Assembly: GCA_036172245.1 (NCBI GenBank) | Contig: JAYWIR010000040.1 | Coordinates: 124,001-188,000 of the forward strand | Direction: 5' to 3' | Origin: Raillietiella orientalis | Lineage: Eukaryota | DNA: 64,000 nucleotides | Part shown: one piece after another, positions 4,773 through 62,200 of the stretch | Layout of the letters: each line of letters begins with the position of its first letter | Position numbering within the stretch: the first letter of the stretch is position 1 | The notes under the pieces: generated by a model | What the model was told of the DNA's origin: nothing | The model's input: only the letters and a program-made list of their open reading frames with translations | Database searches by the model: none | Made by a program: the position numbers and the translations under genes

Positions 4773-4851
4773 TGGACACCGACGATTTACACAAAACACC
4801 ACACAGAAGAAAAAGCGCTTTCCTACTACTCTTTCGGGAGTGAAGGAAAAA

Positions 4852-4887
4852 CACGTCCTCCAACTGGCCGCGGAGGGGGCTGGCTGC
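4852..4887 (-). promoter_or_regulatory. Putative internal Pol II promoter (Inr-like plus DPE) of element B
   Basis: GC-A(+1, 4885)-GCC with GGACGT at +28..+33. The +1 coincides with the point where A/B ORF1 homology breaks. Confidence 0.6.
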
Positions 4888-6167: not shown

Positions 6168-6278
6168 CGCTGCCTGATCGACCACCGAACCACACGACGC
6201 TTGCACTGGGGGAGACTTCCTGGCACAAGGAGCACCGAGAAAACACGTCCGCCCTAGAGCGCACAAGGCGATCAACTG
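4887..6278 (-). mobile_element. L1/Tx1-like element A (5' end and truncated ORF1)
   Basis: 5' Inr/DPE motif. ORF1 starts at ATG 6167 and is interrupted after AAEELAASL by element B. Confidence 0.88.
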
Positions 6279-6279
6279 C
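6244..6279 (-). promoter_or_regulatory. Putative internal Pol II promoter (Inr plus DPE) of element A
   Basis: GCAGTT with A(+1)=6277 and GGACGT at 6250-6245, exactly +28..+33, which is the canonical Inr-DPE spacing. Confidence 0.7.
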
Positions 6280-10916: not shown

Positions 10917-11955
10917 CTTGAAGATCATCCCAAAGAGCAAAGAACTCTGGCAGGAGGAATCCATCCTGGTTATCCCGTGGATGCTCCCCGTGCAGGATGA
11001 AACCAGGAGATCGATACACCAGCTGTTCGGAGTGACTTTGCGTGATAATGAATCATGGACACGACGACGACACCTGCATCATTCTTGGGTGCTGCGTTAT
11101 GTCGAAAGGATTTCTGGCAGCTTCGCATCCAGGACCCGCGAAGTGTGGAAAAATCATCGCGACTTCGCATGGTCCAGAGTAACGAAAAGGAACATTCTCC
11201 AGCTATTAGAAGGAGAACAAGACATCAGCACCCTCCAAGATGTTGCGGACTGTTACGCTAGTAGGATTTAATCCACTGGCGATTGGAACGGTGCTCTGGA
11301 AGAGTGATTTATTACCGAAAACTCAGGATAACCTCCTCATGTTCTTCCATGGAGTCATCCTGAGTGGGTGCAGAGTGAAGCTCTTCACGGGAAGAAGGAA
11401 GGAAGAAATCTGCTGAGCATGTGGTGGAATAGATACAAGACGTCAAGTACTGACCTGCCCCACATTTCAAGTCGAGTGGATCACTCTGAAAAGGGTCATA
11501 GGGCTGTCCAACGCCTCGACGATGGAGGTTTGGGCAGGGATGTTCCAGAGAACTGGAACGGTTCCTTGCTATAACCCTATGGTAAGAGTGACGATCGCCC
11601 TTTTCATCACCGCCATTATTGTAAGGTGGTGGAAGATGATGACAACGAGGACCATCATAACCCCCCTGGGGAACCTGAAAGGGCTCATCCAGAAAGAGAT
11701 TGGCATTAAAAACTGCGGACCAGTGCAGGTCTGGAACTACCAAAACATCCTGAAAAGGATTGGAGGAGGAAACCAGGCCCAAACGACACTCAGGTGATTA
11801 ATGCAGGGTACTTTGCAGAGACCCAGAAAAGCAGACTCAAAGTGAACACCAGCAAACTCATGTGCAGTCTTTGTGCAATTTGCATGAATAAAATTGTAGT
11901 ATGAATGAAATAAAAAAGAGAAAATAAATTAACCCCACCCCTTGTAGGACTTGGG
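10917..11955 (+). mobile_element. 5'-truncated LINE 3' end, same family as 24520-26545
   Basis: KIIPKSKELWQEESILV and CYNPMVRVTI.LFITAI.VRWWKM are shared with the inverted copy. The 3'UTRs are also homologous, ending AATAAA..CCCACCCCT.GT.GGACTT. Confidence 0.85.
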
Positions 11956-14879
11956 GAAACATTAATAATTTTTTATTTTCTGCTTATTCACTCTCCAGTG
12001 CGCGGACCCTTTCCGGCGACTGCTCCGGAAAGATGACGCCTCCGGAACATCCGAAAGTAATGGCAATATAGCAATACTGGAAGATTCCTGAACAACAGAT
12101 GTCACAGCTTGGAAAACAGCTTGAAGTACGAGTTCACCAGGGTGATTCGGCGCCAGTTGTTGAGATGGCGGAAGTCTCCTTTTTCGGGCACAGGACTCAC
12201 CTTTGCTGAGCGAAAGGAAGCCGTGACATGTCGAACTCTCCTTCTACGTCACTATTTTTTGTATGTCTGCCTTCTTCCGTGAAGACCTGTGCGTAGCGCC
12301 TCCATCGGAAAGCCTAGTAAGGTGGTCGTACCATTAAAGTGGCCCCAATTTGCTGCGAATTTGAGTCCATCACGTGACGATCTGTCATCGTGGCATGAAT
12401 GTAACAGATTGCTGCAATCACAGCGCTCGTTCGCTCTTCCGGCTGGCGATCGCTGGCAAACGACTAGCAACCCTGTTTGCGTGCCATCACCGCCGCCTCA
12501 CATCTAGCAGCTTCCCCTTTCGGTGCGTCAATACTCCGGAGAGAGAGAACATGTGGATTTCGCGACCCCCTGCGAATGCCTTGGTCTAGCGGCAAAAGAA
12601 AGTGAGGACGTAGGCCCAGCTCACCCGAATCCAGCAGGAGAGCGTTTCAGCAGAACGGAAGAACATTGGAGGAGGTGGGTAGTGAGCTAGCTGACTTTGC
12701 TGGGCTAGCCACCAGCCACCCCCTTCACCTCAGCGGTGTCCTCCGCTATCAGGGTACATGCCACCGCTCTTCTCCGGCGAAGTGGGAGGTTTGCTGCGGG
12801 ATCTTATTCCTCATAAAGTCTGTGGGTGGCTGGAATCCTGCTGACACAGCAACACCAGGAACCCTCTCCAAAGAAATGCAGCGTTGCAGCGGAACTCTTC
12901 TCCATTCGGCCCGAAGAGTTGGAAGTGCCATCTGTGTTTAGGGATAGTAACCTGCTTCGTCTCAATTGGCTGCAATCGTCGCAGCTGATACTGTACTGGA
13001 TCTCCCGTGCAATGCGCGCAGGGACCACTGGACGAGGGGAAGCTCATTGACGAACTGCGTCAGGTGAGGAGAGAAGAAGACTTTCCCCCACCTATTAGCG
13101 CAGTGCTCCGCCCTACGATTCCTGTGAGAATATCGGCATCGCTTTCTTACTCCGTGGACGATCCTCGTTACTCTTTGAGGCATCTCTTCGTGCGAGACGC
13201 CATGACGCCCGCGGCCGCAATAGCAGCGCTGTGATGAGTTCGCGGTGTGGTTGTGGCGAATGGGGGAGGCGCCTAGAAAAACCGGAGCAACGCCGGAGCT
13301 GTCTTGCCCTCCATTGGCTTCCTAAAGACAACTTTGAGATGGTGCCATCTGGAAAGGGAGGAGGAGCACACCGGCATCCTTCAACGGATGCAGAGGCTTC
13401 ACCCACCACTAAATGCAATCCCTTCCCTTCTCCTCAACTAATTGAAGTTTTTTTTCCAGTTCGTTATAGTTTGTTTGATTGTTTTTCTAGTTTTGTTTTA
13501 TCCCCCTTCGTCTTCGTGGACGTGATCGACCTCTCCCACCTCTCCCGAGTTTTAGTGTTATAATTGCAATCGGTGAGCCCTTTGGCTCCATCGATTTCTG
13601 CAAGGGGAATAAACTCTCCGGCGCACGCGGGTGTGAAACCACAGCGCTCTTCCTGACTCAGCCTTCCGCGAACGAGTCTCGCAGAAAGTCCGAAGTGGGA
13701 AGGATCCTGCGATTGTCTGAGCCCTGAAGGGAGTTCCTCCGCAAGCTTTCCACGAAACCAAACTCCAGCAAAAGGTGAGGTAGCAATTCCGTCGTTCGCA
13801 ACTTTCAACAGTTCGGGGAGACAACTCTTCCGGAAACCAGGAACCTTCTCTAGTTGTATCAGAATTCCCCAACTGAAGAAACAGATGGCATCCTGCTGCC
13901 AACGGAGCTCGAACACGGAGGTGTCAACCACACAGAGGAGTAGGACCACGAATATTTCTGGAGGCACATCAAGTAGGTCACTCTACTGAAGCGGTCCCTT
14001 CGCCCAAAAACGAGGGGTGGCGACGTACACCTACTCGATCGTATTGCAGCCGTCCAGGAATGCTTCGACTACTGCCGTTTTGCCGAAAACTCTTATCACC
14101 CCAGTTGGCTGCTGTCCTTGCTTGCCCTAATGGAAGACAGTGCTGCAGCAAGCGATTTGACCGCAATGTGGGACCACTGCGTCCAATCGTGCGGGGGATT
14201 TTTCAGCGGTTTGCATGAGAGTTTGTGCAGCGATCGCAGTTCCTCTGGGTGCGGTTCGAAAGAGACGGACCGGAAATCCAGCCTCCTGCCGCCAGAAATT
14301 CCAGCTCTGTGGAAAATTATTGTACGCAGCACGTGGGGTTCCCAGGAGGTCGTCGTCCATCCAAGTAGCTGACCTGGTGTGGAGATGCTTCACTTCGCCA
14401 ATGGAAAGCAAGGCGGTGTCGCGCAGTGGCGGCACCGCCTCTCGTTCGATAGTTCCATTTTTTGCCCGATGGAGTCCTTCGACCTCACTCTGCTCCCCTT
14501 GTGGCGGCTTCTACCAATGGAAAGATGCGATGTGTGTCGACCAAATTTATCTCCGGATTCAAAGTTTCAACTTTGTTCTGCTTCTAACGCGTGTGGTTAC
14601 CTTCCACTGCCTGTTTTCGCTGGGCATATAACTTTGCCCTCTTTTCCTTCTTCTTTGCTTCTTCTCTGCTGTGCGACACTGATTTTCAAAAACTATTGCA
14701 CATATTTCGACTCAGTTTACTCAGAAACGACGAACCGACACTGCAATGTGCTTACTTTCCGGGCTATGGATGACACATCCTTCATTAACGTGTCTTTCTA
14801 TAACGAATGTATTTCTCGGATAATTTTAAATCCAATGATACATCTCCATTGCGAAATAGAATTTATTGCTGAGTGGCGG

Positions 14880-16322: not shown

Positions 16323-16441
16323 AATTCACGGCACCCAGGTTTCCCAAGCGTTCGCCCATCCAAGTACTGATCAGGCCCAACGCTGCGTAACTTCGCCGAT
16401 CGAACGTGAGACGGTGCTTTCAGCGTGGTGTGGCCGTGAAC
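16323..16441 (-). rRNA. 5S rRNA: 5S rRNA gene or variant
   Basis: Reverse complement GTTCACGGCCACACCACGCTGAAAGCACC..GATCGGCGAAGTT..AGTACTTGGATGGGCG..GCCGTGAAT, followed by CCCCCTTTTT. The terminal stem pairs. Confidence 0.92.
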
Positions 16442-17576: not shown

Positions 17577-17694
17577 GTGGACGGCCACGTCTCTCTGAAA
17601 GCATCGTTTCTCTTCCGATCGGCGAAGTTAAGCAACATGGGGTCCGGTTAGTACTTGGATGGGCGTCCGCCTGCAAACTCCGTGCTCCGTGAAT
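17577..17694 (+). pseudogene. Degenerate 5S rRNA copy
   Basis: GTGGACGGCCAC..CCGATCGGCGAAGTTAAGC..AGTACTTGGATGGGCG. The terminal stem and helix II are disrupted. A T-run follows. Confidence 0.85.
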
Positions 17695-18002
17695 TTACTC
17701 CTTTTTCCTTTTGACTGCGCTGTGCGTCTCTGAGCAAGAGGACTTCCAAGTTGAACGCGAACTTGCTGATTGTCCTTTCGGTTTGGATAAGCAGTTCCTC
17801 CGACAAGGGACTTGACCTTTTCAAAGGCTTCGGCGCGGCAGATGAGGACGCCTGTGCTTTTGCTGATACGATGCTCGTGGCGCTGTCGCCATTTTGTGCT
17901 GCTCCATTGGATGCCCGCCCGCGCGGGTGCAAACTTCTGACATACTGGTGCTTAAGTTGGGTCGTTTAGCGTCAGAAAGGAGCCATTAACAGAATACTTG
18001 TC

Positions 18003-18121
18003 GTTCACGGCCACACCACGCTGAAATCACCGTCTCTCGTTCGATCGGCGAAGTTAAGCAGCGTCGCGCCTGATCAGCACTTGGATGGGCGACCGCCTGG
18101 GAACCCCGGGTGCCGTGAACC
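18003..18121 (+). rRNA. 5S rRNA: 5S rRNA gene (best-preserved copy)
   Basis: Perfect GTTCACGGC/GCCGTGAAC terminal stem, box A (AGTTAAGC), box C (TGGATGGGCGACC), about 119 nt. Confidence 0.95.
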
Positions 18122-24519: not shown

Positions 24520-26545
24520 GTAAGTCCCACTAGGGGTGGGATGAATTTATTTTCTTTTACATTCAGACTACAATTTCATTCATACAAGTTACACAGAAAA
24601 ACTTCATCACACTTCACGAGTGTTCCCTTGAAGTCTATTTCTTTAAGTCTCTGAAAGTTCACTGCACTTTTTCACCTGGGCATCGTTTTAGCCCAGATGC
24701 TGCCTTCAATCCTTTTCAGGATATGACGGTATTTCCAGGCCCGGACTCTTTCACAGTTCCTGACTCCTTCTGGTAAAGCCCTTTAAGGATGCCCATCAAA
24801 GATACGGCAGTCCTGGTGGTCTTCATCTTCCACCACCGCACAAGAATGGCGGTGATGAAGAGGGTGATGGTCACTCTTACCATTGGGTTATAGCATGAAA
24901 CAGTTCCATTTCCTTGGAACATCCCTGCCAAGACCGCCATGGTCGAGGCATTTGCAGCCCGATGGCCCTTTACAGGGTATATCACTTGTTTGCAATGTGG
25001 AGCAGATCAAAACATGCCGTCTTATATTGATGCCACCACATGTCTGCAGATTTCTTCTTCCCTTTTGCCCGTGAAAAACTTTATTCTGGATCCACTCAGG
25101 ATGCCAACATGGTAAAACATAAGGAGGTTATCTTGAGTGTCCGGTGGGAGGTCACTCCTCCTGGGCAACGTTCCAATCGCTAGTGGATTAAATCCACTGC
25201 TTGCGTGGCGGTCGGCGGCTTCTTGGAGGGCACTGGTGTCTTGTTCTTCGACTATTAGTCGGCGAACGTTGATCTTGGTTACCCTGGACCACGCGAAGTC
25301 GTTATGGTTTTTCCAGACTTCTCGGGTCCTATGGGTAAAGCTGCCAGAGATCCTTTAGACGTAACGGAGCACCTTGGTATGATGTAGGTATCGCCGCCGT
25401 CTCCATGTCTTAGTGGCTTTCAAAGTAACTCTGGACCGCTGGTTTATCCAGCTCTTCGTGTCATCCTGCACGGGGAGCATCCACAAGATAACCAGGATGG
25501 ATTCCTCCTGCCAGAGTTCTTTGCTTTTAGGGATGATCTTCATTTGTTCTTTGCTTATTAGTTGCTGTTTTCTCCGTCATGTTGGGTCAATGGTGGACCA
25601 TTCGCCCAATCTGCCGAGCAGCGCAGTCATCAGGCCTCTCAAGTTGTTCAACAACAGCGAGTACGCCCTGTGCGCTGCGTACGGTCAGTCGTTCCAGTTG
25701 GAAGACATGTCCAGGATTTGTCGCACGTCCATGATGTCCACGGCGTGTGCAGGCGACTTCATCCCGGTCCTACCTTCTTCCTTAGGGCTATATAGTGGTT
25801 TGAGGCGTACTCTCGGTCGGTATCCTCTTCAAAGGTTCTTTTTCTGAAGCTTTTCCACCTCTCTCTTGGTATCTTTGAACATTCTATAGAAGGCTGCTCC
25901 AAAGAGTATCTTCGGAAGGAGTACTCCATTCCAAAGATTAGCCCTCTTCATGTTAAAGTCCGAACTGGTATACTTCGCTCCTTCTGCTGCTGCTTTCCCC
26001 AGGATTTCTTTCCACAGTAATTGGGATGCTGGTGCTCCGCTAATGTGGACACCTAGGTACTTCACTTGATCCACCGTGCGGAAACCTTCCGTTGTAAGAT
26101 GGAGAGGTCCAGGATTCCGACGGGCAAAAGCTGGCTTTCTGGGGCATTGATTCTTAAACCCATTCCTTGTTCCATTAGCTCCACCACATGCAGAAACCCT
26201 CGCTGATCTCTCTCCCTTTTTAGGAAGAAGAGAAGATCATCTGCGTAGGCTAGATGGGTGAGCTTTTGTGTATCCATTGTTATTCCGTGAAGGTATTCAC
26301 TTCTCTCGATGAGGCCTCCATGCACATGACAAACAGCATTGGACTCAGAGCATCGCCCTAGAGGACTCCGCGTTCCATCCGAATAGCTGTTGTTGATTTC
26401 ATCATTAATCTTGATGTGGAAATTTTGTTCTTCGAGTACCATCTTCACGAAGTTGCCGAAGTATTCCGGGAGGCCCAGTTTTCCTAGAATCTTCAGCAGT
26501 ATCCCATGGTCCACCGTATAGAAAGCCTTCTCCATGCCGGTAAAG
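24520..26545 (-). mobile_element. 5'-truncated Tx1/L1-like LINE: RT, C-terminus and 3'UTR (frameshifted)
   Basis: MEKAFYTVDHGILLKILGKLGLP, LAYADDLLFFL, VKYLGVHI, WNGVLLPKILF. Confidence 0.9.
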
Positions 26546-27379
26546 TCCAGTACTAAGTTCTCGCCGATATATCGGCTGAGCCTAGTCTGTTAGCTGCTAA
26601 GTTGTCCATGCATTTAGAAGGTTTTTCCTGACTCCAGTATGACAAAACACTTCCCAATTTTTCCGTTTCTTTCCACGCCTGGCGTTTCTGAGTGAGAGCC
26701 GTATTGGGGAAAGGGCATAAACGAAGCCCACAGCAGTTTGCCCTGGTTGTAGACAATCTTCCACAGAAGCTGTCGAGCATTGATTTCCGTTTGGTGGCAG
26801 GAGTACTCTGCATCGTTCAAACCGCAGATAGTTTCCAATGCGAAAACTGACTCCTGAATCTAGAAATTGCAGTTCACGGGGTGGCCGGACTTCCTGGAGT
26901 TTTCCTGCACTAGGGCAACCATCTGACGCAGCTGATGGTCACAATGCCTTAGGCTGCGGTCGCATGTTGCGAGGATCGATTATGTTATTCCTTTGCAGTG
27001 GGTCGCTCTTCTGGCGTGGAGGCTTGCGGGTTCGCACCATGACGTTGTCCAGAACTCTGTCGCGAGGGCATTTTTTTAAATGGAACTGCTTCATCCGCTG
27101 CAGCTTGAGAAGGTCCAGTCCTCTATCCTTACGCGGAGCACACGAGTCTTTTAAACGGACTCTACATCTTCTCATTGTGCATAGGAATTTCCTCAGGAAA
27201 CCCCCTGTCTGATTTTTGATCTTGGGTAGAGAAGGGAAAAGAAAAAGTAGAGTATGGAAGAGGAGGGCCGCGAACGCGTTTCACACCGCCGCCCGTTCCT
27301 GCAAGTACAAGTTGCCGTCCTGGAACGAACCGAGCACCATGCCTATCTTCTGAAGACGGTCGGATCAGGCTCCTGCTGT

Positions 27380-30539: not shown

Positions 30540-31950
30540 GTGCAAAGAGCTTCTTCCATTTTCAGCAGCATCGGAGAAATTGAGCACAGCGGAAAAAGAG
30601 AAGCAAAAAAGATAGAGCTGGGAAGAGAGTCAGCTACCCCAATGGAGGCAACCTTCCCGAAAAACGCAGAGGACAAAAAGATGGATGCGCTGCTCACCAC
30701 CCCATTTATCCAGGAAGAAATGTTTGCTATGGTCGTGATCAACCGTATGGAAGTCGAAGTGGGGGACGTCTTGAAGGCAGCGAAATCCGGAAGTATGGCT
30801 TTGGAGAAAAAAGGAGAAATCCCTGTGAGGCCAATTAAGTGGACTGGCCGGGAAGAACTCTTCAGAGAAGAATCTCGCGCCGAAGACACCGCGGATTACG
30901 AGAAGTAGATGAGCGAGACCGAGGACGACACTTTTGTTTCCAGGAAGCCCACGGCGTCCTCCAAGCAGAAAAATACGAGAGCTTTAAGAAGCAAAAAATA
31001 ATTTCTCTTGGAATCTTTGCTGCCTTCCGTCAGGAGCATCAAGATCTCCTCTTGGAATGTGAATGGGATGTCCAACCAGGAGAAGAGGAGAAGGATCACG
31101 CGCTCCATCGAGCGTGATGACATCATCTGCCTGCAAGAAATTCACCAGACGGGAGACAAGATCTGCCGCGAACTCGAACGGAGACTGGATTTCATATTGT
31201 TCTTGAGCCCGGGAGAGAGGCAGACCAAGGACGTAGCGATCCCCATCAAGAACAGGGTTCTGGAACATCTGCACACATTGTTCTGGAATCCTTTTCTCCG
31301 TGGCCCAGCCGCATCCTCAAAGTTCGGATGTCCTGATCCGGCGCAGTTCGCCTATTCCTTGTGAACGTGTACGGACCCCACCTGGAAAAGCATCGGTGCT
31401 CAGGGACTGTGCGCGTTCTACTGCGCAGCAAGGCCGCATCAAAGGATATCGTCGTCGTCGTGGGAGAACTGAAAATCGAGAGCGTTTGGTTCTAGCGGAC
31501 TGCTGTTGAACTACCAACTGGTATTCCTGCAGGTCTGCAAGTCAAATAAAAGACGGAAACTAATGATTAACATCCTTTTCCATTTGAAGCCATCAAGTTC
31601 TAGCTAAATAAGAAAAGAGGTTCAAAGTTTTTTTTCCTTGGCAAAATAGATCGTCTGGATGCGCTGGCTCCCATGCAACTTTATTTTATAAAAGGCAAAG
31701 GCTTTTTTACCGGATTGCGCCATGGATTCACTTGAATAACAAAAGAGAACTACAAAGCGAACAAGGAAAGTGATTTTTTATGAATTTAAAAAAAAAAAGA
31801 AACAAAAAGAAGCTATGCTGGTGATAACCGACTTTCAGGGCAGGGAAGGAATTTGCTGTAGCATTGAAAGTATCAGAGAAAGTATTTGTTTAAAATACAA
31901 ACTGATGTGTGGGGATAGAGTCACAAAGATTGCTGCTGAAATCTATCTTT
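30540..31950 (+). mobile_element. Decayed LINE 5' part with APE endonuclease
   Basis: IKISSWNVNGMSNQEKRRRI..DIICLQEIH (31008-31364), with LVNVYGP in another frame. Confidence 0.8.
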
Positions 31951-33169: not shown

Positions 33170-36100
33170 GGGAGTTCTCTTGAACTAATGAGCAGCCGTT
33201 GCAATCCCTTGTGGAAAAACTCTGCGAAGAAAAGAGAGATTGAAGGTTCTGCGAGTTTCTTCACCGACAGTGAATGAAATTGCAGAACATGCTCTCATAG
33301 CTTTAGACCACCTTAACCTGGGACAATGAGGGACGAGTTGTTTGAAAGGAGGAAGCAAGGGGGAGAACCTAGACAAATGCTTGAAATAGTTTAAAAAACA
33401 TCATCGGGCAAAAAGTGACCACGCCAACGCGTAGTTCAGATTTTTCAGGTAATTAGCAATTGTTCTGCTCAGGAACATGCAAATTGTTGCGCAGAGCGTG
33501 CTTTTTATGTCACATTATGTGAAGCGACCAAGATAATCTCTTACAGATAGTTTACTCACAGGGCTCAAGGTCAGTGTGCTTCCGCTTTGCCAGAAAGTAT
33601 GAAGAAATGGAATTTTTCGGATGACTAAAGATAAGACCTCCAGGACTCCTACGAGTCCAAATGCAGGACTGCTGCTCGGTCCAATTTTCCGCTCACGAAG
33701 CCCGCCGGCCGTTTCTACAAACAAGAAAGGCTGGTGCCAATGCTCCCAATGAGCGAAAAACAGGGTATTTGTCAGGTTTAAGAACACATGAATGCCAAAG
33801 CCACTACTACCCTGTTTCCTCGATGCTTCTGTTGAAAGACCTTGGGCTTCGATTTAGCATTCTGGAAGATTAAGCAAAAATTCTTTGGATGGTAAGCCGA
33901 AAGCAGGAAATCGCTTGCTGAATGCAGCACTAAGCTGAAGACGTAAGCAGCTCAAACGGAGGCTTCAATGCAGCTGCAATTCATTCCTACTTTGTCGACT
34001 ACTTTGTCACCAAGCCCGCAATGTGACCCTGATTGCGGGACTGGCAATCCTTCTTCTGGCGGAGTGCGAACCTGCGGAAACTTCGATCTAACATCGCGAC
34101 TCTCTTTGTAGGTTAAGGAAAGCACCAGCAGACAAGGCTTGGCTTTCTTCGCACTGCTGACATCTTACAATAAATCGCTTCAAGAACGAGCTCAATTGAT
34201 GCCAGGATTGACAAAAATGGGTTTCGCTTTCATGTGTCAACTTGTTTATTGGTTTGCTGTACAGTGGACATTTAGGATCTTGTAGAACCCTTGGGACGGT
34301 ACTTTCAGAGTGCGCAAGACCTAAGAAAAGGAACGTGCCAAAGGGTATCTTATTTTTCGTCTTGCATTGGCTATTGTCCGCAAGCAAGATGGAGAACCAA
34401 TCGTTTATTTTATTTTTCCGATTGACGCTCCAGATTGCGATCATGGAATCCGGATTATCATTTAATGGCAATTCAAATAGTGTTTCATGGTTGTTGCAGA
34501 GTGAGTCCACCTACATGCTACTGGCACATACCATCCCATGCTAAGGATTTAGCACGCGGTGCCCTATTTCCAAAGTATTCGTCAATTGTTCATGCTGATC
34601 CTCTTACCGATGTTAATTTTTTTTCTTCTGTAATCAAAAACTGTGCGATAGTGTTTGCCGAAGAGGTCTCCTAGGATGATGGCCGTTTGGTGTGTATCGG
34701 TAGCGGTTATCAGAGTCTCACAAATAGGTTGCTGTGCACTGTAATCAGGCACCTGAAAATTTTTTTCATTCTGACAGAGGCGGAATATGTTGATTACCTC
34801 GATCAGGAATTCTTCCGGGAAGAACATGAAGACTTTGCTACTGATGGTCATTGTGAGGTTATCATTTTTACAGTCACAAGGTACCTAAGCGTCTTTTGAT
34901 TTTACAAAAATTCACAAATGCTTACTTACTAGTAAAGGATTAGCTAATTCGCATTTTTCGTTCAGAGCGGTAATGTATTTTCTGTGTTCCTTTTTGGAAA
35001 GGCCAATACCTCTGAAGCCAAAATGGAAAAATGCAGTACATCCACGACAAATATAATGTTTGCCTAATTTTAGACTGAAGGACGAAATTTCCAGCGAGTT
35101 TCAAGTGCACACTTGCATCATCGTACCTTTCCACTGGCAATGCCCATTGTGAGTTGTCGGCAGTTTTTTGATGTAGAAAAGGTCTCGCCAAAATGGGACG
35201 TCCGAAAATCAGCATTCCAGCATGCTTTTCCCAAGGATTCCTGCAAAGTTTGTTAATTACACTGTAATCTCATCGATGAAAAAGTGTTGTCAAGCAGTTC
35301 CTCGCTTTACTTAGTCATTCTCCCTTCAGCACATATGACGATATCGCACACAGTAAGCAATGATGACGTCAGTGAACCTGTGGTTCACTTGGTAGAGGGT
35401 GTATCTAAAGCACACATGCCCGCATTGACACAACTGAATCATTCTACTGATGTGGCAACCAGCAATGCCTCATTTGTGCAATCAATTCACATATGGGATG
35501 TGGCAATCAGCAATGCACGTTGATGAGCCTAAAGCATTTTCTCGCTCTGCCTTCCGCGGAAATTTTTCGTACTGCGCTCTTCTTTGTTACACGTTTACTG
35601 CAACATGCAATCCTCTCCGTTTTTAAAGATTTGCTTGCATTCCGGGCTTGCACATTAGAATTTGGCAACGATTTTCCTCTAAGGAGGTGCTTTCTTCTCC
35701 ATCACTGGTGCTAACAAATGATAGAAAGCAGCTGCTACGGCAAAATAACCAGATGGAAGATTAGCTGCTCCTCTGCAGACGACTCGTTTGGGAAGAACAT
35801 GTGGAAAGACCGTACCTAATTCTTGATGAGGTGCTTTCCTTTCTATCATTTGTTCAAACAGCCCGTGAAACTGCAATGCAAACGCACTGTATTGCCTGCA
35901 GATCGTATCCTTCGCAATGTCAGTATTGTCGTTTCGTGCAAAAAACGATGCTTGGAAAGCGACCCAATTCGAGGGCACTTCCAACTACAGGCAAACGAGA
36001 AGAAATCCCGGTTTCCCACTACCCAGTGGTTCAGAAAGGCATAGCTCCACTGATGCTCCTAGAAGTTCTATTCTCTCGCACTGAGTTCTGACGATGCGCA

Positions 36101-39100
36101 AGTAGAGATATTCGCCCTGCAGACAAGAAATCAGATGGAAAAGCTACGTTCTCATAGTAAAAAATTCACTTCATCTCTCAGTAATCTTGATCGTTCCAGG
36201 AGATTTCACTTTGCACATTCACAGAACAAAAGTGCCACAAATTCGAGTTCAAGGATGGCTTCTGCTTTTTTATTGTGGACCAAGCGGAGAAGAGTCACTA
36301 TGGCTTCAACCTCCTTCTGACGCTTTGGGAGACATTCGTATTCTACAATGGTGGAAATGAGAAGTAACATCAAAGAATGCGATGGAAGTCAGTAAAGAAG
36401 AATGCAGACGAAATGACCCAATGAATAGTCTGTTATGTCGAATGAATCTTGCATATGATTCCAGATAGTATGGAATCAGAAAAGAAAATTATCTTCTAAG
36501 GGATGAAGTGAACTTTCAAGAGACACTGCGCTCAATTTGAAATCATGCACACTACACGAAGTTCTGCATTTGGGCCATCATACGAGATCTGGTGAAATGG
36601 CTGCATCATCAGATTCAAAGTTGAAAGAGTGTTCAACAAGCATAGATAGTACGTGCAGCGAAAATTTGGTTTTCAGCAATTTCCCGGCTTGGGCAGCGTG
36701 GCTCGTTGATGACCGTAAAGCCGTGACGAATCCCTGACCCAACCTAATTTCGAACGCGCTTTCTGAAAAAAGATATTGTGCTCAAGGAAAGCCGTGTCGA
36801 GTACACTAGTGTTCACATAAAACCGAGAGAAAAGGAATCGTACGCAAAATAAAATTGTTCCTGTTCTGTTACAAATAACAAATTCATCCAACCGTGTAAC
36901 GACAAATTTGTGCTGGAGCATTACCTGCCATGATCAATGGAAATCGTTGGAGGCATTTTTGGATTCATGGATTTCAATCTCTGAAACCACGACGTGTTGG
37001 TGTATGCTTTGTCTAGCAGCTTCGGAGCGACTCCTAAGAATCCTTGGTGAGGGAAGGAAAACGCGTCCACAAGAATGGATTCAGAAACTTGCCAGAATTT
37101 CTGATTTATGAGAAGCTGATTTCCTATCTGGAAGTAAAGGACAATTGCTCTCACAAACTGACAGTACAAATTACTATGTGCCGTGCATCAAGGTGCCAAA
37201 AATAAAAAAACTCAATGTGGTATACAAAAGATGCTCTGAACTTCCACTAATGTCTGAGGTTAGCAAGAGCAGAGAAGCAAGCCTCTTGCTGTTCAAATCT
37301 TATTTGCTGATTTAATAAATTACTTTGTTCCACCAACCGTGCAAGAACTCTGTAACATTGTTCTGATGCAGATCCCCTTATCAGTCGGAAGATTGCAAAT
37401 TTATTGGGCAACAGAAAATGCTTGAGGAGATAGAATGATATCTTTTCCTGGCTGCAGTTTACAGTTATTTGTGTGAAAAGTAATCCTTTTTGTACAATCA
37501 ATTCACATTTGGGAGCTCACCGTAATGTCGTCTTCTCCTAAGATGAGGTAATCGCCTATATTGCTTCGCAAGTGCAATTCTTTTGAACGTTCACGGAAGC
37601 TACGAAAAGTGCAAGAGTCCACCAGTGAAAATTCTTTACAACACAAAATGTAATGACATTAATACAAGACAGAATTTCCTCTTACCAAGAGGCATGCTCA
37701 TATCCGATAGTACAATGGAGTTCAAAGTTCCATATGGAACTATAGACATGTCTCTCTCCGGAATTCCTACTTTTATTTGAAAATACAAATGCTGAAAAGA
37801 AAATAGATAAACAGCTTTCAAGTCAATACGCGGAACTTCCCATTGCTCGCAACCTAGTTTGACATTTCTGATTTCCGAATCCCAATGCTCTGCTAAAGAG
37901 AGCAATGGCTTCTCATCTGACTCAAAGGAGCGAATGTACCTGTTTATCAGGCAGCTCGTATGTTACACGTTCACTACCTTCAAGCCGCCATGCCCAGAAA
38001 ATTTTACATTTGAGTTAGGAAAAGAGGTTGCTCTTGGGTTGAAAAGCTTGCTTATCTCCGAGAATGATGCAAATATACTAACTAAGAAACTGGTTGCATT
38101 AGTCAGGCTAAAAGTCGAGTTTGTGATATATCACTGCAGAGAAGCCAATTTTCTGGGTTCAAGAACTCGTTAAGCGACAAGACGCTTTCTGTCATCCATG
38201 CACCAAACAGTCCAAGCGGCTGTGTCCTTTGCAATTTTCCCACTCCTCAGCTTCGATTGCATCCACAGTCAACCCTACCACAGTTAACGATGTATGTGCC
38301 TGGTACAACACACCGTGAACACTCATATCAACAAATTCGGCCTCGCTTTAAAATGACAGTGCAGACGTCACCCCGTATTCTTCTGCAAGTCTAAATGCAA
38401 AAGCGAGCGCAATAATCCCAATTTTTAGGGATATAAACTCAAATTAGCATGCAAATGGAAACGCAACAGAAAAAAAACACAGCCCAAACAAAAGTCACTC
38501 CCGATATTTGGAATAAATGTTTGATTGCTAAGAAGGCAACAGATCTGTGGCAGCACGTTGTGGGTAGAGCACTTTTATTATGTAAAACTAACATGAAATT
38601 GACACAACGAAACAAGGAAAGAATGGTGACCGGATTTCTTACCGCACCATCAGTGAATAGGGGAACCTCGAACCATCCGTCCTTTTCCTCTGGTGATTTC
38701 GCTCGTGCATTCCAATTTCCAAGTTGGCTTGCATGAGACCTCTTGAGTTCGACAGAACCATCCCTTTTTTCCTCACTACTCATCAGGAAGTGTGCGGAAG
38801 CGTGGGGTGTTCTGCGATGAAGACAATCGGTGACAGTGTTTTCAATATTTGAAATCCATTCAAGACGAAATTCGATACAGCATACTCCTCATCGTGGTCA
38901 TCCTAACTTCTATAGAATTACATAGCAACATGATTTGATATGCGATCGTGCATGGCTACTTCTGGGCGCGTGTCCACCCAGTTCTTTTCATGCATTTACC
39001 GATTGGGATGGACCCATTCAGCCAAGCAGCATCAACCCACAATAAGGAAATTTAGCATCAGGCCAAAATACACGCATGAAACGCTTGAAAATACAAAGGA

Positions 39101-41640
39101 AACGATGACGCAAAAAGAAAAAGGCATCAAATAAACTGGGTTCCCATCTAGAATATTGGCACTGCTCCTACTGCTACGGTACAAAGGACTACTGAAGGGA
39201 GAGCAAGCGGCTTTCGGCTGACCTTAAAAGCACAAAAGAAAGATTCCAACATGGAAAATAGAAGCTTCTACAGACGAAATGACTCTTGCGTCTGATGCTT
39301 CCACGAATTCACTGCAATCTGAAATGCGAAATGGAAGGCAGCAAACGCGATGGTACGAGAGGTCGCAAGAAGTTGATGTGCACTGCAAACATTGAGATTG
39401 CGGATGTGCAGCAGTGCGATAGTGTTGGAAATGTGTCGTAATGACCTCAGTAGACATTAGCGTGGTATCCACGAAGGCACTTGTGTGCCATTGGAATATA
39501 AGCCATCAGAGTGTATCGGTGAACTAAGGCCTTCATGAATTCGATACACCATCGATATTTGAGCTGATGAGGCAGAACTAGTCTTCTGCGAGGATTCCGT
39601 CGCGGAAAGATGACTTTTGCAAGAGCTCTAGGAATTCGCGGATAGAATCCACTCCAAGTTTCGCCGTTCTGGGGATCAGAATTTCGAACTCCACTCGGAA
39701 TTTGACATCATGTTAATGTGGACCCCATCGTGCAAATTTCTCAGGTAGATTGCATGTTATGTTCCAAGTGGAACGAAGCTTTGTGGTCTACTTTGTGGTC
39801 CTCGGTCTTCCGCGTTCAAACGGTCAACTGCAGCATTCCTATAAATTTATATGTTGAATGCACGCGGAAATATGGTAGAAAAGTACCCAGTTTCCTTGGT
39901 CGGGTTTTCGAAAAATGGAATTGTTGTTCTTTGCTTTGCAAAGAGAAATTGTCACCGTTTCACTCTTTAATGGAGAGATCTGAGAGATACGCGGAAGAAA
40001 CCAACCCATGTTCTGAACTCAAAGTTCTAAAATTCGGCTGAGCATCTTCAGAGCAAGATTCGAATGCGGAGACGTACCTTTTTATTTCGCTGCAGGAATG
40101 TAGAATCGCTATTGCAAAGATCAGGAGCTTCATTCCTTCCCAGCTACTGCAACTTTTTCCGGAAATTTCGATGTGATTGGCTGAAAAGAAAAAAAGACTT
40201 TTCGCTGTGGAAAGCAAATTCTGAATATGTTGAACCTCGCAAATGATTGAAGGTCGTGCTAAAGAGTAAATGTTACGTTTTTTTTCTACTCTAATGGGCA
40301 TTGGAGGATTACACTGATAACAGTGCTGTAATTTTAGATAAACCACAAAGTCGTCTTAGTGGTTTTCATTGACCCCGACTTGATAGCAGTTGAGAGTCTA
40401 CTGCTGTCGATCCGAATGACTATGCCTCGGTTGCATTGGAAAGTACTTTAAGATAGAAGTTCATCCGGAAATTTCATCAGGTGACCGAAGTGTGGTGCAG
40501 AATATCGCTGAAGCGGTGCAAGGTTTCGTCGCGATGTGGTTTCTTCCATCCCTTTCGTAAAAACGACTGAGCTTAAACTTCCAGGTAAAGTATAGATTGT
40601 AAACCTCTTCAAAGCACGAATCCTGAAGAAAGCACCCCATTTTGTCTTCAGAAACTTCTCTTGCTTTGCATTCGTGGAGATATGTTCGGTGCCTTGAAGA
40701 GCAGCTGCTTGCATTTGTGTCCAATTTCTGATTTGCTTCTGTTGTGAGGCCACGTGGTCGCAAAACTGAAGCAAAAATCTCTTTAGGCAGAAAAAAAGGA
40801 CACTTTGCAATGCTTTATCTTCATCTATATGTTAGCTTGTGCATCATTGGCTGCACCAAAATGTACACAATGCAGCAACCCAAAAGAAGTGTTCTTCATT
40901 GCGACAAAGTCTCTACTGAGGGGTTTGACCAGGAGGAGAAATTAGTTTCTTCAGCGATGCGCTCAGCTGCTAAGATCCCTTCTCAACTGAAGATGATGGT
41001 GGTCGAACATAAGCTTGTCACCGTTGAAAATCATCAAAGTAAGCGCACTGCTTTGTGGTTTCCATGCGACGCGGGGTGGTGCTCTTTTGTGCCGTCAAGA
41101 TAACAGGCAGCTGTAGGTATTGGAGTGGTAGCTGTAGGGCTAGATAAACCAGTTTAACGGATCAATCTCTGTGCGAATTCCGGTCACCAGGCGAAATCAT
41201 TTGCACTCGTTCGTATGTACAAGTATCAGTTTCATCATCGGAAATGTCGGAAGCGCATATTTTGCGGCGATTGCACTTTGGAGCAGCTTTGTGCCGTCTT
41301 TGCACATACATGATCTGAGTTTGTTTGCGCCTACTGAGCAAGCGATTGGCAAAACTAGTGTAAATAATCATTTTGTCATAATCATTTAAATAATCATAAT
41401 CATTTTCTCACGGGCAAAAAGGTGTCACGCGTCTGAATTTTGAGAGGTTATTCATGAAGTAATCAATTTTCAAGCTTATACACACCTTCACTCTACATCA
41501 ACTGCAGTGATGTTGGTAGCCACACGGAGGAACAGTGTACAGCAGAACTTTTTCTTAGAAGCTGCAGGCACGGAAGCACAGAAACCGTGCGCAGATGAAT
41601 GAGAAGATGGGGAGATGTGAAGGAAATTTGAATATGAAGT
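33170..41640. repeat. Segmental tandem duplication, copy 1 (partner ~56300-64000)
   Basis: Near-identical blocks: 33658-34656/56845-57843, 36470-36990/59690-60210, 38197-40235/61445-63484. Diverged homology lies between and beyond them (41530-41630 vs 63890-63990). Confidence 0.95.
34582..40133 (-). CDS. Secreted pepsin/cathepsin-D-like (A1) protein lacking both catalytic DTG motifs; 9 exons, about 356 aa
   Basis: Manual GT-AG model: 40133-40078, 37939-37864, 37791-37686, 37633-37521, 37127-36925, 35240-35127, 35074-34930, 34884-34798, 34752-34582 (1071 nt, open). Motifs: MKLLIFAIAIL signal-like; YFQIKVGIP; LGEDDITIG; QGFLGVAP; GMLIFG; QWALP; ICRGCTAFF; VPC; IILGDLFGKHYRTVFD. Exons 3-9 are secure; exons 1-2 are less so. 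Confidence 0.87.
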
Positions 41641-56299: not shown

Positions 56300-59200
56300 G
56301 TTGCAACACTGGGCAATGAGTGGTCTTTTAACTGCTCCTCTTCCGAGCAGCCTACGGAGTTACTTATGGAAAGCGTGAGAGTTTTTCTGACCTACCGTTC
56401 CCCCTATGCAACTCTGTGCTGTTAATCTACAGAAGGAGCTGCACAGTTGAAAGGCAGTGGCGACCTTGAATGAGTTCGTTGCACATGCTTTCAAAGCTTT
56501 GGACTCATTAGATGACAACAGGGAGAAACTAAGGAAAACAATGTGGTTAACTGCTTCTAGTAGTAAAAAACCGCACTATTGAAAGTTAGTTTGCCATCGC
56601 TGTGTGCGGTTTTCCGAATTCCCAGGTGATTCCTAAAAATTCTGCTAAGGAAGATGCTAAAGGTTTCGTAGAGACTGTTTTAAATGACGCAGCTTCAGAG
56701 GCAGCCAAAATAATATCTTACAGTTTGCTCACAGGGCTTGAGGTTAGTGCTCTTCCGCTACCCTGCAAAGCATGAAGAAATGAAATTCCCCTGTTAACTG
56801 CAGCAGCAACTTCCAAAATGAAACTTCCACGGCTCTCGTGAGTTCAAATGCAGGACTGCTGCTCGGTCCAATTTTCCGCTCACGAAGCCCGCCGGCCGTT
56901 TCTACAAACAAGAAAGGCTGGTGCCAATGCTCCCAATGAGCGAAAAACAGGGTATTTGTCAGGTTTAAGAACACATGAATGCCAAAGCCACTACTACCCT
57001 GTTTCCTCGATGCTTCTGTTGAAAGACCTTGGGCTTCGATTTAGCATTCTGGAAGATTAAGCAAAAATTCTTTGGATGGTAAGCCGAAAGCAGGAAATCG
57101 CTTGCTGAATGCAGCACTAAGCTGAAGACGTAAGCAGCTCAAACGGAGGCTTCAATGCAGCTGCAATTCATTCCTACTTTGTCGACTACTTTGTCACCAA
57201 GCCCGCAATGTGACCCTGATTGCGGGACTGGCAATCCTTCTTCTGGCGGAGTGCGAACCTGCGGAAACTTCGATCTAACATCGCGACTCTCTTTGTAGGT
57301 TAAGGAAAGCACCAGCAGACAAGGCTTGGCTTTCTTCGCACTGCTGACATCTTACAATAAATCGCTTCAAGAACGAGCTCAATTGATGCCAGGATTGACA
57401 AAAATGGGTTTCGCTTTCATGTGTCAACTTGTTTATTGGTTTGCTGTACAGTGGACATTTAGGATCTTGTAGAACCCTTGGGACGGTACTTTCAGAGTGC
57501 GCAAGACCTAAGAAAAGGAACGTGCCAAAGGGTATCTTATTTTTCGTCTTGCATTGGCTATTGTCCGCAAGCAAGATGGAGAACCAATCGTTTATTTTAT
57601 TTTTCCGATTGACGCTCCAGATTGCGATCATGGAATCCGGATTATCATTTAATGGCAATTCAAATAGTGTTTCATGGTTGTTGCAGAGTGAGTCCACCTA
57701 CATGCTACTGGCACATACCATCCCATGCTAAGGATTTAGCACGCGGTGCCCTATTTCCAAAGTATTCGTCAATTGTTCATGCTGATCCTCTTACCGATGT
57801 TAATTTTTTTTCTTCTGTAATCAAAAACTGTGCGATAGTGTTTTGTGAAGAGGCCTCCTAGGACGATCACCCCTTCCTCTGCTCCGATATCTTCCATGAG
57901 GAATTCACAGATGGGTTCCGTTGTACTGTGATCAGGCAGCTGAAAATATCTTTGATTCTGCCAGAGGTGGGAAATATTACCTCTACTAGGAATTCGTCTG
58001 GGAAGAACGTAAAGACTTTGCCACTGATGGTCAATGTGATATTGTTATTTTTACAGGCACAAGGTACCTAAGCGTCCTATGTGTTCGAAAAAATTCATAA
58101 TTGCTCACTTACTAGAAAGCTATTAGCTGTTCCGCATTTCCTATTGAATGAAGTGACGAATATTTCGTATTCCTTTTCGGAAAATCCGATTCCCCTGATG
58201 GAAAAATCGAAAATTGCAATGCACGGACGACAAATATAATGTTCGCCTAACCTAAAACTGGAAGACGAGATTTCCATCTGATTTAAAATGCACACAATCT
58301 TTAATGTACCTTTCCACTGGCAATGCCCATTGTGAGTCGTTGGCAGTTTTTTGATGTAGAAAAGGTCTCGCCTCAATACGGCGTCCGAAAATCAGGGTTG
58401 CATCATGCCTTTCCCAGGGATACCTGCAAAGTTTGTTCAATGCACTGTAATCTTATGAGTGAAAACCAAAATATTAAGTAGTGCTCATTTCCTCTTAAAA
58501 TTTTCTAACGATTAAAATTTGCATAGAAGTTTGTGAACGATGTGCTTCCCCTTCCATCATTGGTTCTAAGAAATGACAAAAAGTGGCAGCGAAAGAATAG
58601 CTAGATAATGGATGAGCTGTGTGTCTCCGGAGGTGTTTTAGCTCCATGGAATGGGACGGCAATCACCTCTCTAGGAAGAACCTCCTTCAGAACTGCAGCC
58701 ATTTCCGATGAGGTGCTTTTTTTTTTTTGATTTGTTCCAACAGTCCGTTGAGGCGCAATGCGAACGAAGTGTATTGCCAGCGATTCCAATCCTTCTCTTC
58801 GTGCAAGAAAAGATACTTGTGAAGCCACAAAATTTGATGGCACTCCGATTTAGGGTAAATAGAATGAAATTTCAGTTTCCGTTTACCTAATGTTTTAGAA
58901 TGGTATACACTTAATTGTACCTCTTGAAAATACCGCACACAAGATGGCAATCCATCTGATCCGTCTGAGAGCAGCCCGTCAAATCCATAGGTTGCCAATC
59001 AAGGAAATAGAATTAAGTTATAGAAGACTCGCTTCCTAGCCGACAACCCTCACGAGGTAGTGCAGAACGTGGATCTCTCTTTGCAATTGTTCTTCCGTCT
59101 TTCCGACATGGGAAGTAGTGGCCGATTTCGGAGGTGCACCAATACCGGGTCAATTCGCGACAAAAGAGGAGCAAGTATCAAGCATCCCTTTCATTTCAAA

Positions 59201-62200
59201 AACGTAAATAATTTACTGGCTTCCAGATAGGCGATGTATCAGATATCAAGCTGATAAGAAGAGATTTCGTTTTATCAATCCTACAGTTCATTTTAGAAGT
59301 TCGATAATGTGGCTCTGCCGTAGAAGAGCTCTGCCTATGCTGTCTTTAGCACTGAGTTCAGGAGGAACTCAAGTGAAAGAATTTGCTCAGTACATTCGAC
59401 TTTAGATGGGAAAATACATTTTTAATGTAAGGAAATCATTTCATCCATCAGGAAATTTTCATCGTACCAAGTAGCGTATACTGCCCCCGATCACAAAAGA
59501 AAAAATTAACAATTTGAGTACGAGCACTGATCCTGGTTCCCTATTGTAGAACAAGCAAAGTAGAATCACTTTTGCTTCAATCTCCTGATGTTTTGGCATA
59601 TGTTCGTATTGTGCTTTGGTGGTAATGAAAATTGTCATCAAAAGTTGCGATGAAAGCCAGTGCGAATCTTGCATGTCATTCCAGATACCATGGAATCAGA
59701 AAAGAAAATTATCTTCTAAGGGATGAAGTGAACTTTCAAGAGACACTGCGCTCAATTTGAAATCATGCACACTACACGAAGTTCTGCATTTGGGCCATCA
59801 TACGAGATCTGGTGAAATGGCTGCATCATCAGATTCAAAGTTGAAAGAGTGTTCAACAAGCATAGATAGTACGTGCAGCGAAAATTTGGTTTTCAGCAAT
59901 TTCCCGGCTTGGGCAGCGTGGCTCGTTGATGACCGTAAAGCCGTGACGAATCCCTGACCCAACCTAATTTCGAACGCGCTTTCTGAAAAAAGATATTGTG
60001 CTCAAGGAAAGCCGTGTCGAGTACACTAGTGTTCACATAAAACCGAGAGAAAAGGAATCGTACGCAAAATGAAATTGTTCCTGTTCTGTTACAAATAACA
60101 AATTCATCCAACCGTGTAACGACAAATTTGTGCTGGAGCATTACCTGCCATGATCAATGGAAATCGTTGGAGGCATTTTTGGATTCATGGATTTCAACCT
60201 CTGAAACCACTACATGTTTCTGCATTCTTTGTCTAGCAGCTTCGGAGAGACTCCTAAGAATCCTTGGTAAGATGTGTAAAACGCTCCCTCAGAGCTAGAA
60301 ACTTGCCAGAATTTCTGATTTATAACAAGCTGATTTCCTATCTGGAAGTAAAGGACAAGTGCCTTCATCAACTGAGAGTACAAATTACTATGTGCCGTGC
60401 ATCAAGCTGACAGAAATAGAAAAATCACATGTATACACAAAAGATGCGCACAACTTCCACTGGTGTCCTAGCTAACTTTGCATAGAGACTTTCATCTCTT
60501 GAGGGTCCGGTGTTAGTCGGTGCTTTAGAAAGCTAGTTTGATTCGCCAATAGTGCAAGTCATTTGAGAAACTCTGTATAACGTCGTTCTCTGATGCAAAC
60601 ATGATCACCAGCTGGCAGATTGCAAATTCGTTATGTAAAAGAGAATAACACGAGAGATGGCATGGTATCGTTTCTTGTTAGTATCACTTACAACTACTTG
60701 TGGGAAGATTGATTCTTTCAGTGTAGCAATTTACGTATGGAATCTCACCGTGATGTCGTCTTCTCCCAAAGTGATGTTATAGTTGTCCGTATCGCTTCCA
60801 AAGCTCTCTTGGAAACTGCTCCCTTTGAAGTTGATGAAAGTGCAAGAGTCCTCTATTGAATGTCCTGGAAACCATAAAATGTAACCACAAACTATTCTAA
60901 GCCAAAATTATCTCTTACCATGAGCCTTGTTCAATGAAAATAGAATAATGGAGTCAAAAGCTGCATGAGGAAGCAAAGCCATCCTTAGTTCTGGAATTCC
61001 TATGTTGAGTTTTAAATACGAATGCTGAAAAAAATAAAGATGGACAACTTTGAACTCAATATGCACACTATTGGGCTTAATTATTGCTTGCAACCTATTT
61101 TCACATTTCTTATTCCCGAATTTGCATATTATACTAACAAGATCAATGGTCTGTCTTCCGAATCAAAGGATGGAATATACCAGTTCCACAGGCTTCTCGA
61201 GTGTTAATCGTTAACTACGTTTACACCTATGTGTTTGAAAAAATTCTTATCTGAGTGAGGGAAAGGGAAAGACTGTTGTTCAGCTAGAAGGCCTGCCTCA
61301 CTCGGAGAATCTTGGAAACAAATAAAAAAGAGATCTGGCCGCAAGGAACAACACCCTCAGTCAAGATATTCGTGATACTTTGCTGTACAGAAGAGAACTG
61401 CTTACTCCATAACATTATGATACGACAGCGCACTTGGCATTATACATGCACCAAACAGTCCAAGCGGCTGTGTCCTTTGCAATTTTCCCACTCCTCAGCT
61501 TCGATTGCATCCACAGTCAACCCTACCACAGTTAACGATGTATGTGCCTGGTACAACACACCGTGAACACTCATATCAACAAATTCGGCCTCGCTTTCTA
61601 ATGACAGTGCAGACGTCACCCCGTATTCTTCTGCAAGTCTAAATGCAAAAGCGAGCGCAATAATCCCAATTTTTAGGGATATAAACTCAAATTAGCATGC
61701 AAATGGAAACGCAACAGAAAAAAAACACAGCCCAAACAAAAGTCACTCCCGATATTTGGAATAAATGTTTGATTGCTAAGAAGGCAACAGATCTGTGGCA
61801 GCACGTTGTGGGTAGAGCACTTTTATTATGTAAAACTAACATGAAATTGACACAACGAAACAAGGAAAGAATGGTGACCGGATTTCTTACCGCACCATCA
61901 GTGAATAGGGGAACCTCGAACCATCCGTCCTTTTCCTCTGGTGATTTCGCTCGTGCATTCCAATTTCCAAGTTGGCTTGCATGAGACCTCTTGAGTTCGA
62001 CAGAACCATCCCTTTTTTCCTCACTACTCATCAGGAAGTGTGCGGAAGCGTGGGGTGTTCTGCGATGAAGACAATCGGTGACAGTGTTTTCAATATTTGA
62101 AATCCATTCAAGACGAAATTCGATACAGCATACTCCTCATCGTGGTCATCCTAACTTCTATAGAATTACATAGCAGCATGATTTGATATGCGATCGTGCA

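Follow-up and report, generated by a model that had tools for sequence, protein, structure and literature searches.

A nine-exon gene of Raillietiella orientalis predicted to encode a secreted, non-catalytic pepsin-fold protein, and its mosaic tandem copy

On the minus strand of a 64 000-nucleotide stretch of DNA from Raillietiella orientalis (assembly GCA_036172245.1, contig JAYWIR010000040.1, positions 124 001–188 000), referred to below as the window and numbered from its first letter, lies a gene split into nine exons between positions 40133 and 34582. It is called copy A, since a tandem paralogue, copy B, is found on the same strand at 63381–57769. The gene was pointed out by a first-pass annotation made from the sequence alone, which proposed a secreted relative of pepsin that has lost both catalytic aspartate motifs. 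A computational analysis of the exons, their intron phases, the homology of the spliced product, its active-site residues and the divergence of the two copies is presented here. It identifies copy A, at the level of sequence, as a full-length homologue of peptidase family A1 (pepsin/cathepsin D) with no aspartate at either catalytic position, and it suggests a secreted protein that would bind rather than cleave its ligand.

Exons of copy A

The gene model was rebuilt from stop-to-stop frames together with GT/AG sites. The exons measure 56, 76, 106, 113, 203, 114, 145, 87 and 171 nt, for a spliced length of 1071 nt, that is, 356 amino acids and a TGA. The introns are 115, 2095, 52, 393, 1684, 52, 45 and 45 nt long, introns 3, 6, 7 and 8 thus spanning only 45–52 nt; all eight are GT–AG, with 16 canonical splice sites in total, and their phases are 2, 0, 1, 0, 2, 2, 0 and 0. 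The reconstruction arrives at exactly the model of the first-pass annotation, including the open frame of 356 codons, the eight phases, the 145-nt exon 7 (145 nt being exactly the length of exon 7 in pepsinogen and cathepsin D genes) and the two quoted motifs IVPYGTL (residues 61–67) and AFFHFGF (237–243).

Exon 1 (40078–40133, 56 nt, minus strand, as for all exons of both copies) starts with ATG, encodes the signal-peptide-like sequence MKLLIFAIAILHSCS and ends at the phase-2 donor AG/GTACGT (the slash marks the junction here and below). Exon 2 (39887–39962, 76 nt) encodes ETVTISLCKAKNNNSIFRKPDQGNW and follows a weak acceptor, aaagag/T, which, with exon 1 ending at a phase-2 donor, is the sole in-phase AG of the open frame. 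The acceptor of exon 3 (37686–37791, 106 nt) is strong, ttttcttttcag; this exon reads HLYFQIKVGIP...IVPYGTLNSIVLS and contains the degenerate first catalytic site, with P63, Y64 and G65 at 37737–37729. Exon 4 (37521–37633, 113 nt) holds the flap region, with SNIG (103–106) where A1 proteins have YGSG, and exon 5 (36925–37127, 203 nt) holds QGFLGVA, the counterpart of the psi-loop motif FDGILGLG. Exon 6 (35127–35240, 114 nt) is followed by exon 7 (34930–35074, 145 nt), in which C232-x-x-C235 precedes the degenerate second site AFFHFGF, with His240 at 35025–35023. Exon 8 (34798–34884, 87 nt) and exon 9 (34582–34752, 171 nt including the TGA) complete the gene, the latter encoding the conserved A1 C-terminus, IILGDLFGKHYRTVFDY.

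Homology of the spliced product to peptidase A1

The reference set for homology was assembled by scanning metagenome contigs with a degenerate pattern of a ten-residue A1 active-site motif, which yielded 120 loci. Only those with a complete Met-to-stop open reading frame (ORF) of 360–460 aa and the motif 60–140 residues from the start were retained (35 of 120, the other 85 being discarded), and all 35 belong to PF00026, with E between 3e-81 and 4e-125. Against the A1 hidden Markov model (HMM) derived in this way, the spliced product of copy A scores 48.1 bits (E 4.5e-17, Z=1) and that of copy B 48.2 bits, whereas the highest score among 1000 shuffles of copy A is 4.1 bits; the match spans profile nodes 113/118–380 of 383. 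Profile alignment with hhalign extends the homology over most of the product. In local mode, copy A gives a probability of 98.0% (E 2.3e-13) over 306 columns, covering residues 41–350; in global mode, copies A and B together give 99.3% (E 7.8e-20) over 343 columns, and copy A alone scores 95.9, compared with 8.3 at most for 60 shuffles. The C-lobe taken by itself still reaches 97% (E 1.1e-10). These alignments cross the exon junctions without gaps, except at a variable loop at the junction of exons 3 and 4. Chance ORFs, which were considered as an explanation of the model, are rejected by the profile and hhalign scores set against those of the shuffles.

Signals of the family are also detected in single unspliced pieces. 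When 20 stop-to-stop minus-strand frames were compared with Pfam, 19 had nothing above the cut-off, and the remaining one, the read-through of exons 8–9, matched PF00026 at profile positions 263–313 of 315 with 20.2 bits (E 4.4e-4), just above the cut-off of 19.9. A search of the PDB with exons 8–9 returned 21 matches, every one an A1 protease matched at its C-terminus, the best being cardosin A (E 0.0031). With exon 5 alone, 24 of the 30 matches in an Atlas feature search were PF00026 clusters (top score 0.94) and three were TAXi_N clusters. Taken together, these comparisons place copy A in peptidase family A1 over its full length, where the first-pass annotation had put it on the strength of its gene structure and motifs.

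Catalytic sites, flap and retained motifs

Active A1 enzymes carry two catalytic aspartates, each in a D-T/S-G triad, and a flap tyrosine, Tyr75, in a Y-G-x-G hairpin. At site 1, the local hhalign alignment sets the profile sequence F-D-T-G-S-S-N-L-W-V against (gap)-P63-Y64-G65-T-L-N-S-I-V of copy A, while the global alignment places the profile aspartate opposite Y64 and deletes the threonine. At site 2, the profile reads A-I-v-D-S-G-T-S and copy A reads A-F-F-H240-F-G-F-R. Whichever alignment is taken, from HMM or hhalign, the catalytic positions of copy A are occupied by Pro63 or Tyr64 and by His240, and in none of those made is there an aspartate. The flap has changed as well: opposite the Y-G-S-G of the profile stand S103-N-I-G in copy A, where the flap tyrosine has become serine, and F-G-S-D in copy B. 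The degeneration of both aspartate motifs and the loss of the flap Y-G-x-G, as first proposed, are thus borne out for copy A.

Features of the A1 fold beyond the active site include the hydrophobic-hydrophobic-Gly motifs of the psi loops and the disulfides of the C-lobe. Both psi-loop motifs are kept in copy A, as FLG (147–149) and ILG (326–328), aligned with DGILG and WILGD. The pairs C232/C235 and C274/C311 align with cysteine columns of the reference set, so that two of the three classic disulfide positions are retained; the first disulfide loop is missing, with only C87 in that region. The C-terminal TVFDY block is also retained, and the product has three N-glycosylation sequons. The N-terminus MKLLIFAIAILHSCS contains a hydrophobic core (Kyte-Doolittle mean of 3.5 for residues 3–11) with small residues at −1 and −3, and exon 1 aligns with A1 signal peptides in the global hhalign alignment; by these properties it looks like a signal peptide.

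Intron–exon structure compared with the A1 family

The exon sizes tabulated for four mammalian genes of the pepsin family, which encode pregnancy-associated glycoproteins (PAGs), are 53–59, 151–166, 118, 119, 194–200, 117–123, 136–148, 99 and 147–156 nt (PMC5561160 Table 3). The phases computed from these sizes are 2, 0, 1, 0, 2, 2, 0 and 0, identical to those of copy A, so that the set of phases quoted for A1 genes in the first-pass annotation is real, at least in the four genes of that table. The positions of the junctions were compared with those of beaver PAG-L after translation of the sequences printed in Table 2 of the same report. Five junctions agree to the residue or codon, and the rest lie within a few residues, beside loop indels. 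Exon 3 starts two residues before YF in both (ATYF in PAG-L, HLYF in copy A). Exon 4 ends at TLT/V and DIT/I, respectively, within the pattern D-x-[IL]-T/[VI], and exon 5 ends in GGCAG/G in both genes alike. The end of exon 6 reads IE-(E)-FLV in PAG-L and VE-(S)-LKL in copy A, that is, [IV]E-(split codon)-[FL]x[VL], and exon 8 ends at IIS/DDG and LIE/VPD. The catalytic aspartates of PAGs are encoded by exons 3 and 7 according to that report, and the degenerate motifs of copy A are found in exons 3 and 7 too. Nine exons are likewise given for Bombyx cathepsin D (PMC1629011). The nine-exon structure of copy A is the ancestral one of the A1 family, a case in which conserved intron positions can identify the family of a gene when most of its exons are unrecognisable by sequence.

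A1 zymogens have an N-terminal propeptide of ~40–50 residues (PF07966). The sole large difference in exon size is found in exon 2, which at 76 nt is about half the 151–166 nt of the tabulated mammalian genes, implying that most of the propeptide is missing in copy A. The hhalign alignments open ~22–25 gap columns in this region; a pro-strand-like sequence, TVTISL, is retained in exon 2, where it aligns with the pro-strand ‘lvriplkk’ of the A1 profile.

A diverged tandem copy patched by near-identical tracts

Copy B, which was overlooked in the first-pass annotation, emerged from tBLASTn and from a self-blastn of the window, 23.2 kb upstream of copy A. Its exons are located at 63381–63326, 63210–63135, 61024–60919, 60864–60749, 60341–60145, 58423–58310, 58257–58113, 58067–57981 and 57939–57769. 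The phases are as in copy A, all introns are GT–AG, the 16 splice sites are all kept, and the only differences in exon length are in-frame (+3 nt in exon 4 and −6 nt in exon 5). Site 1 reads LLPHAAF (60976–60950), that is, P-H-A with no aspartate, and site 2 reads AIFDFSI (58217–58197), where D239-F-S keeps the aspartate. Histo-aspartic protease (HAP) of Plasmodium works with a histidine at position 32 and an aspartate at 215. The His/Asp combination of copy B recalls this enzyme, but it sits in a copy that bears an in-frame TAG codon.

The duplicated segment covers ~7 kb, with 33435–40356 corresponding to 56612–63585 at a period of 23.2 kb, and its two versions form a mosaic. In 100-column windows, identity is ~97–100% over 38284–40283, which includes exons 1–2 and most of intron 2, and again over 36535–37000 and 33775–34690. 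Outside these tracts it falls to 60–80% with many indels, such as gaps of 370 and 246 nt in intron 5. Because tracts of ~100% alternate with tracts of 60–80%, the pair looks like old paralogues in which recent gene conversion has overwritten patches. Mis-assembled alleles were also considered and rejected, since 60–80% identity with many indels over long tracts is too diverged for alleles.

Two side observations concern this segment. A 149-aa open frame within intron 2 (38442–38888 and 61687–62136, both minus strand) is identical in the two copies, has no Pfam match and is probably a chance or repeat-derived frame. In one DNA run (X1, share 0.07), six short pieces were recovered, none with an exon joint; four of the six are identical to the window, and one of these four lies inside a diverged tract (34824–34974). 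A 151-nt contig of the same run matches 34566–34680, at the 3′ end of exon 9, with ~82% identity before departing from the window, and its source may be a third member of the family at another place in the genome.

Selection on the two copies

Over 273 diverged codons, the ratio of non-synonymous to synonymous substitution rates (dN/dS, Nei–Gojobori) between copies A and B is 0.68, with a bootstrap interval of 0.48–0.95. In the diverged tracts, gap events amount to 5.4 per kb in exons versus 15.3 per kb in introns. A crude simulation of neutral drift at the observed divergence leads to an expectation of 7.3–8.3 stop codons, where one is observed (P(≤1) = 0.003–0.006). Constraint on the pair is weak or mixed, purifying selection being weak but real. 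The dN/dS ratio, the scarcity of stops and the rarity of indels in exons, where they are net in-frame, argue that both lineages kept their coding capacity during most of their history, and they say less about copy A today.

Searches for relatives in protein libraries

Word-index protein searches with exons 8–9 and with exon 5 revealed no relatives. The library searched does contain cathepsin D sequences of arthropods and other animals, so that a lack of animal proteomes does not explain the negative result. An exhaustive HMMER search with the frame of exons 8–9 against 1.84 billion representatives gave a single match, a spurious tandem-repeat protein; with a query of 100 residues and a library of such size, even true A1 enzymes would miss significance. 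That the pair represents an undescribed lineage-specific family, as suggested at first, is plausible in so far as exons 8–9 and exon 5 have no relatives there, but the class of inactive A1 homologues to which these genes would belong is itself well known, arthropods included.

What copy A may encode

The reading to which the highest probability is given, about 55%, is that copy A encodes a secreted, non-catalytic pepsin-fold protein that does without zymogen activation and acts by binding, and that its tandem sister was disabled recently. In this reading copy A is an intact gene descended from an ancestral animal gene of the pepsin/cathepsin D type (peptidase A1); it has lost ~25 propeptide residues, and its frame and splice sites survived heavy divergence from the tandem sister. 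The protein would be exported by means of its N-terminal signal peptide and adopt the bilobed pepsin scaffold; it would not hydrolyse peptides by the aspartic mechanism, would need no zymogen activation and may hold a ligand at or close to the cleft that once received the substrate, as in other inactive A1 homologues. The pair would be fast-evolving and partly homogenised by gene conversion, with copy B now inactivated by its TAG codon, or with the TAG representing a null allele. By analogy with such homologues, a role of decoy, inhibitor or effector can be envisaged for copy A.

Several results weigh against this reading. One in-frame TAG is present in exon 5 of copy B (60212–60210, codon 162), where copy A reads TCG. 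The constraint is weak, the upper bound of dN/dS being 0.95, and exon identity in the diverged tracts is 75.4%, compared with 71.0% in introns. The acceptor of exon 2 is poor and lacks a pyrimidine tract. The A1 profile is biased, since an exact motif served to select the sequences in it. The N-terminal part is weakly matched: residues 1–118 alone score 2.5 bits and rank 6 of 2002 among shuffles, although the alignment is still collinear, and hhalign gives E 0.0045 and a probability of 7.7% for residues 19–185, and E 0.1 for residues 19–120. Single exons do little better. In the PDB, there was no match for exon 3 or exon 7 alone and one unrelated match for exon 5 alone; profiles combining copies A and B again gave none for exon 7 and one unrelated match for exon 3; and an Atlas search with exon 3 alone gave no usable match. 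Finally, the searches of large protein libraries with exons 8–9 and exon 5 brought up no relative that could provide evidence of conservation across species.

The alternative that survives best, clearly less probable but to be taken seriously, is that a duplicated A1 gene has left two decaying relics, of which copy A has simply escaped a disabling mutation so far, and that nothing functional is made. Weakly purifying selection and a stop in the sister copy leave room for such a dying gene, and the loss of both catalytic sites and of the flap, the failure of the library searches to find relatives, the weak acceptor of exon 2 and the difference of only ~4 points between the conservation of exons and introns all point the same way. 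Simple decay is harder to reconcile with a frame in copy A that is open for 356 codons and has 16 of 16 canonical splice sites, or with a copy B that keeps all of its own splice sites and an in-frame length despite ~25% exon divergence. It also predicts seven to eight stops instead of one (P 0.003–0.006) and does not account for the rarer, net in-frame indels of the exons, nor for the survival of structural motifs (the two cysteine pairs, FLG and ILG, and the C-terminal TVFDY block).

A more elaborate version of the favoured reading, rated as doubtful, takes the pair as part of an undescribed, lineage-specific and fast-evolving family of secreted, propeptide-less pepsin-fold binding proteins. 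The exons forming the cleft would be under diversifying selection, gene conversion would keep the flanks and the 5′ exons identical, and the members would sample active-site chemistries, among them the His/Asp pair of copy B, similar to that of Plasmodium HAP.

It is unlikely that only exons 4–9 are a true A1 remnant, with exons 1–3 wrongly assembled and the real gene starting elsewhere or having no signal peptide. The suspicion arises from the N-terminal 118 residues, non-significant by themselves, from the 2095 nt of intron 2 and the weak acceptor of exon 2, and from the location of exons 1–2 within a tract that is 100% identical between the copies, where conservation cannot separate exon from intron. 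Against it, exon 3 has its strong acceptor, ttttcttttcag, and its first codon lies two residues ahead of YF in the Y-F-x-I-x-I/V-G-x-P block, exactly as in exon 3 of beaver PAG-L; the local hhalign alignment reaches back to residue 41; exons 1–2 provide the expected succession of signal peptide, pro-strand-like TVTISL and N-terminal strand, with the family phases 2 and 0; and the frames inspected upstream of exon 3 showed no further hydrophobic start that begins with Met.

That the product has kept an enzymatic activity by way of a non-canonical active site, parallel to Plasmodium HAP, is very improbable: copy B does retain the aspartate of site 2 (AIFDFSI) and has His64 opposite the first aspartate (LLPHAAF, in an ungapped alignment read by eye), and copy A has His240 at site 2, but copy A lacks a carboxylate at both sites, the adjacent Thr/Ser-Gly and the flap tyrosine are replaced too, a His/Asp pair occurs only in the copy that bears the stop, and the alignment of site 1 is uncertain by one residue between the local and global modes of hhalign.

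Other features of the window

The window as a whole is eukaryotic DNA rich in long interspersed nuclear elements (LINEs), at ~41–46% GC. Its first part, 1–6329, is a GC-rich block (58–62% GC) with LINE fragments on the minus strand, comprising an APE-type endonuclease at 3–836 (PF03372), a second copy recognised by eye at ~2605–3072, and, at 3021–6329, an ORF1-like frame of 1102 aa that contains CCHC knuckles. Other retrotransposon pieces are a reverse-transcriptase fragment at 26062–26589 (minus strand; PF00078, 26 bits, under the cut-off) and an endonuclease fragment at 31002–31364 (plus strand; PF03372). Three matches to 5S ribosomal RNA lie within 1.8 kb, at 16323–16441 (minus strand), 17577–17695 (plus strand) and 18003–18121 (plus strand), with 91.0, 52.3 and 91.8 bits, respectively, two of them in inverted orientation and the middle one degenerate. 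An inverted repeat of ~1.08 kb with 76% identity links 10881–11959 to 25580–24515, its arms being 12.5 kb apart.

Comparison with known inactive and active A1 proteins

Among active enzymes, the animal cathepsin D and lysosomal aspartic proteases (PF00026) have in common with copy A homology over the whole length and the gene structure. The differences are large, however, with ~20% identity to the profile and with both aspartates, the flap tyrosine, the first disulfide and most of the propeptide lost in copy A. Re-use of the pepsin scaffold as a binding protein is known from the plant xylanase inhibitors of the TAXI type (PF14543/PF14541), which, unlike copy A, belong to the plant lineage and to a different A1 subfamily.

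Bla g 2 of cockroaches keeps both aspartates in altered triads, and copy A, without either aspartate, differs from it in this respect. Bla g 2 was absent from the 21 PDB chains matched by exons 8–9, the exons to which that comparison was confined. Bla g 2, Per a 2 and Lma-p54 are described as secreted arthropod proteins with the A1 fold and no proteolytic activity, whose binding function is unknown or presumed (PMC9541408); the same combination of an A1 fold without catalysis is predicted for copy A from its sequence.

Mammalian PAGs, many of which are presumed to be inactive (PMC5561160; PMC2682831), resemble copy A in having nine exons, identical phases, near-identical junctions and catalytic sites in exons 3 and 7, and they resemble the A/B pair in their tandem duplication and fast evolution. 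They differ in being placental and restricted to mammals, in a full propeptide exon 2 (151–166 nt versus 76 nt) and in usually keeping both aspartates. The likeness in gene structure reflects the common ancestry of all animal A1 genes and not membership of the PAGs. No specific affinity of copy A to the Bla g 2 group, to PAGs or to TAXI-type inhibitors was seen in these comparisons; judged by its predicted product, copy A is instead a strongly diverged addition to the already known class of inactive A1 homologues, to which it contributes a very distant and so far unannotated example. If it is expressed, the pair would offer a tidy tandem case of the re-use of a protease scaffold, with gene conversion acting side by side with divergence.

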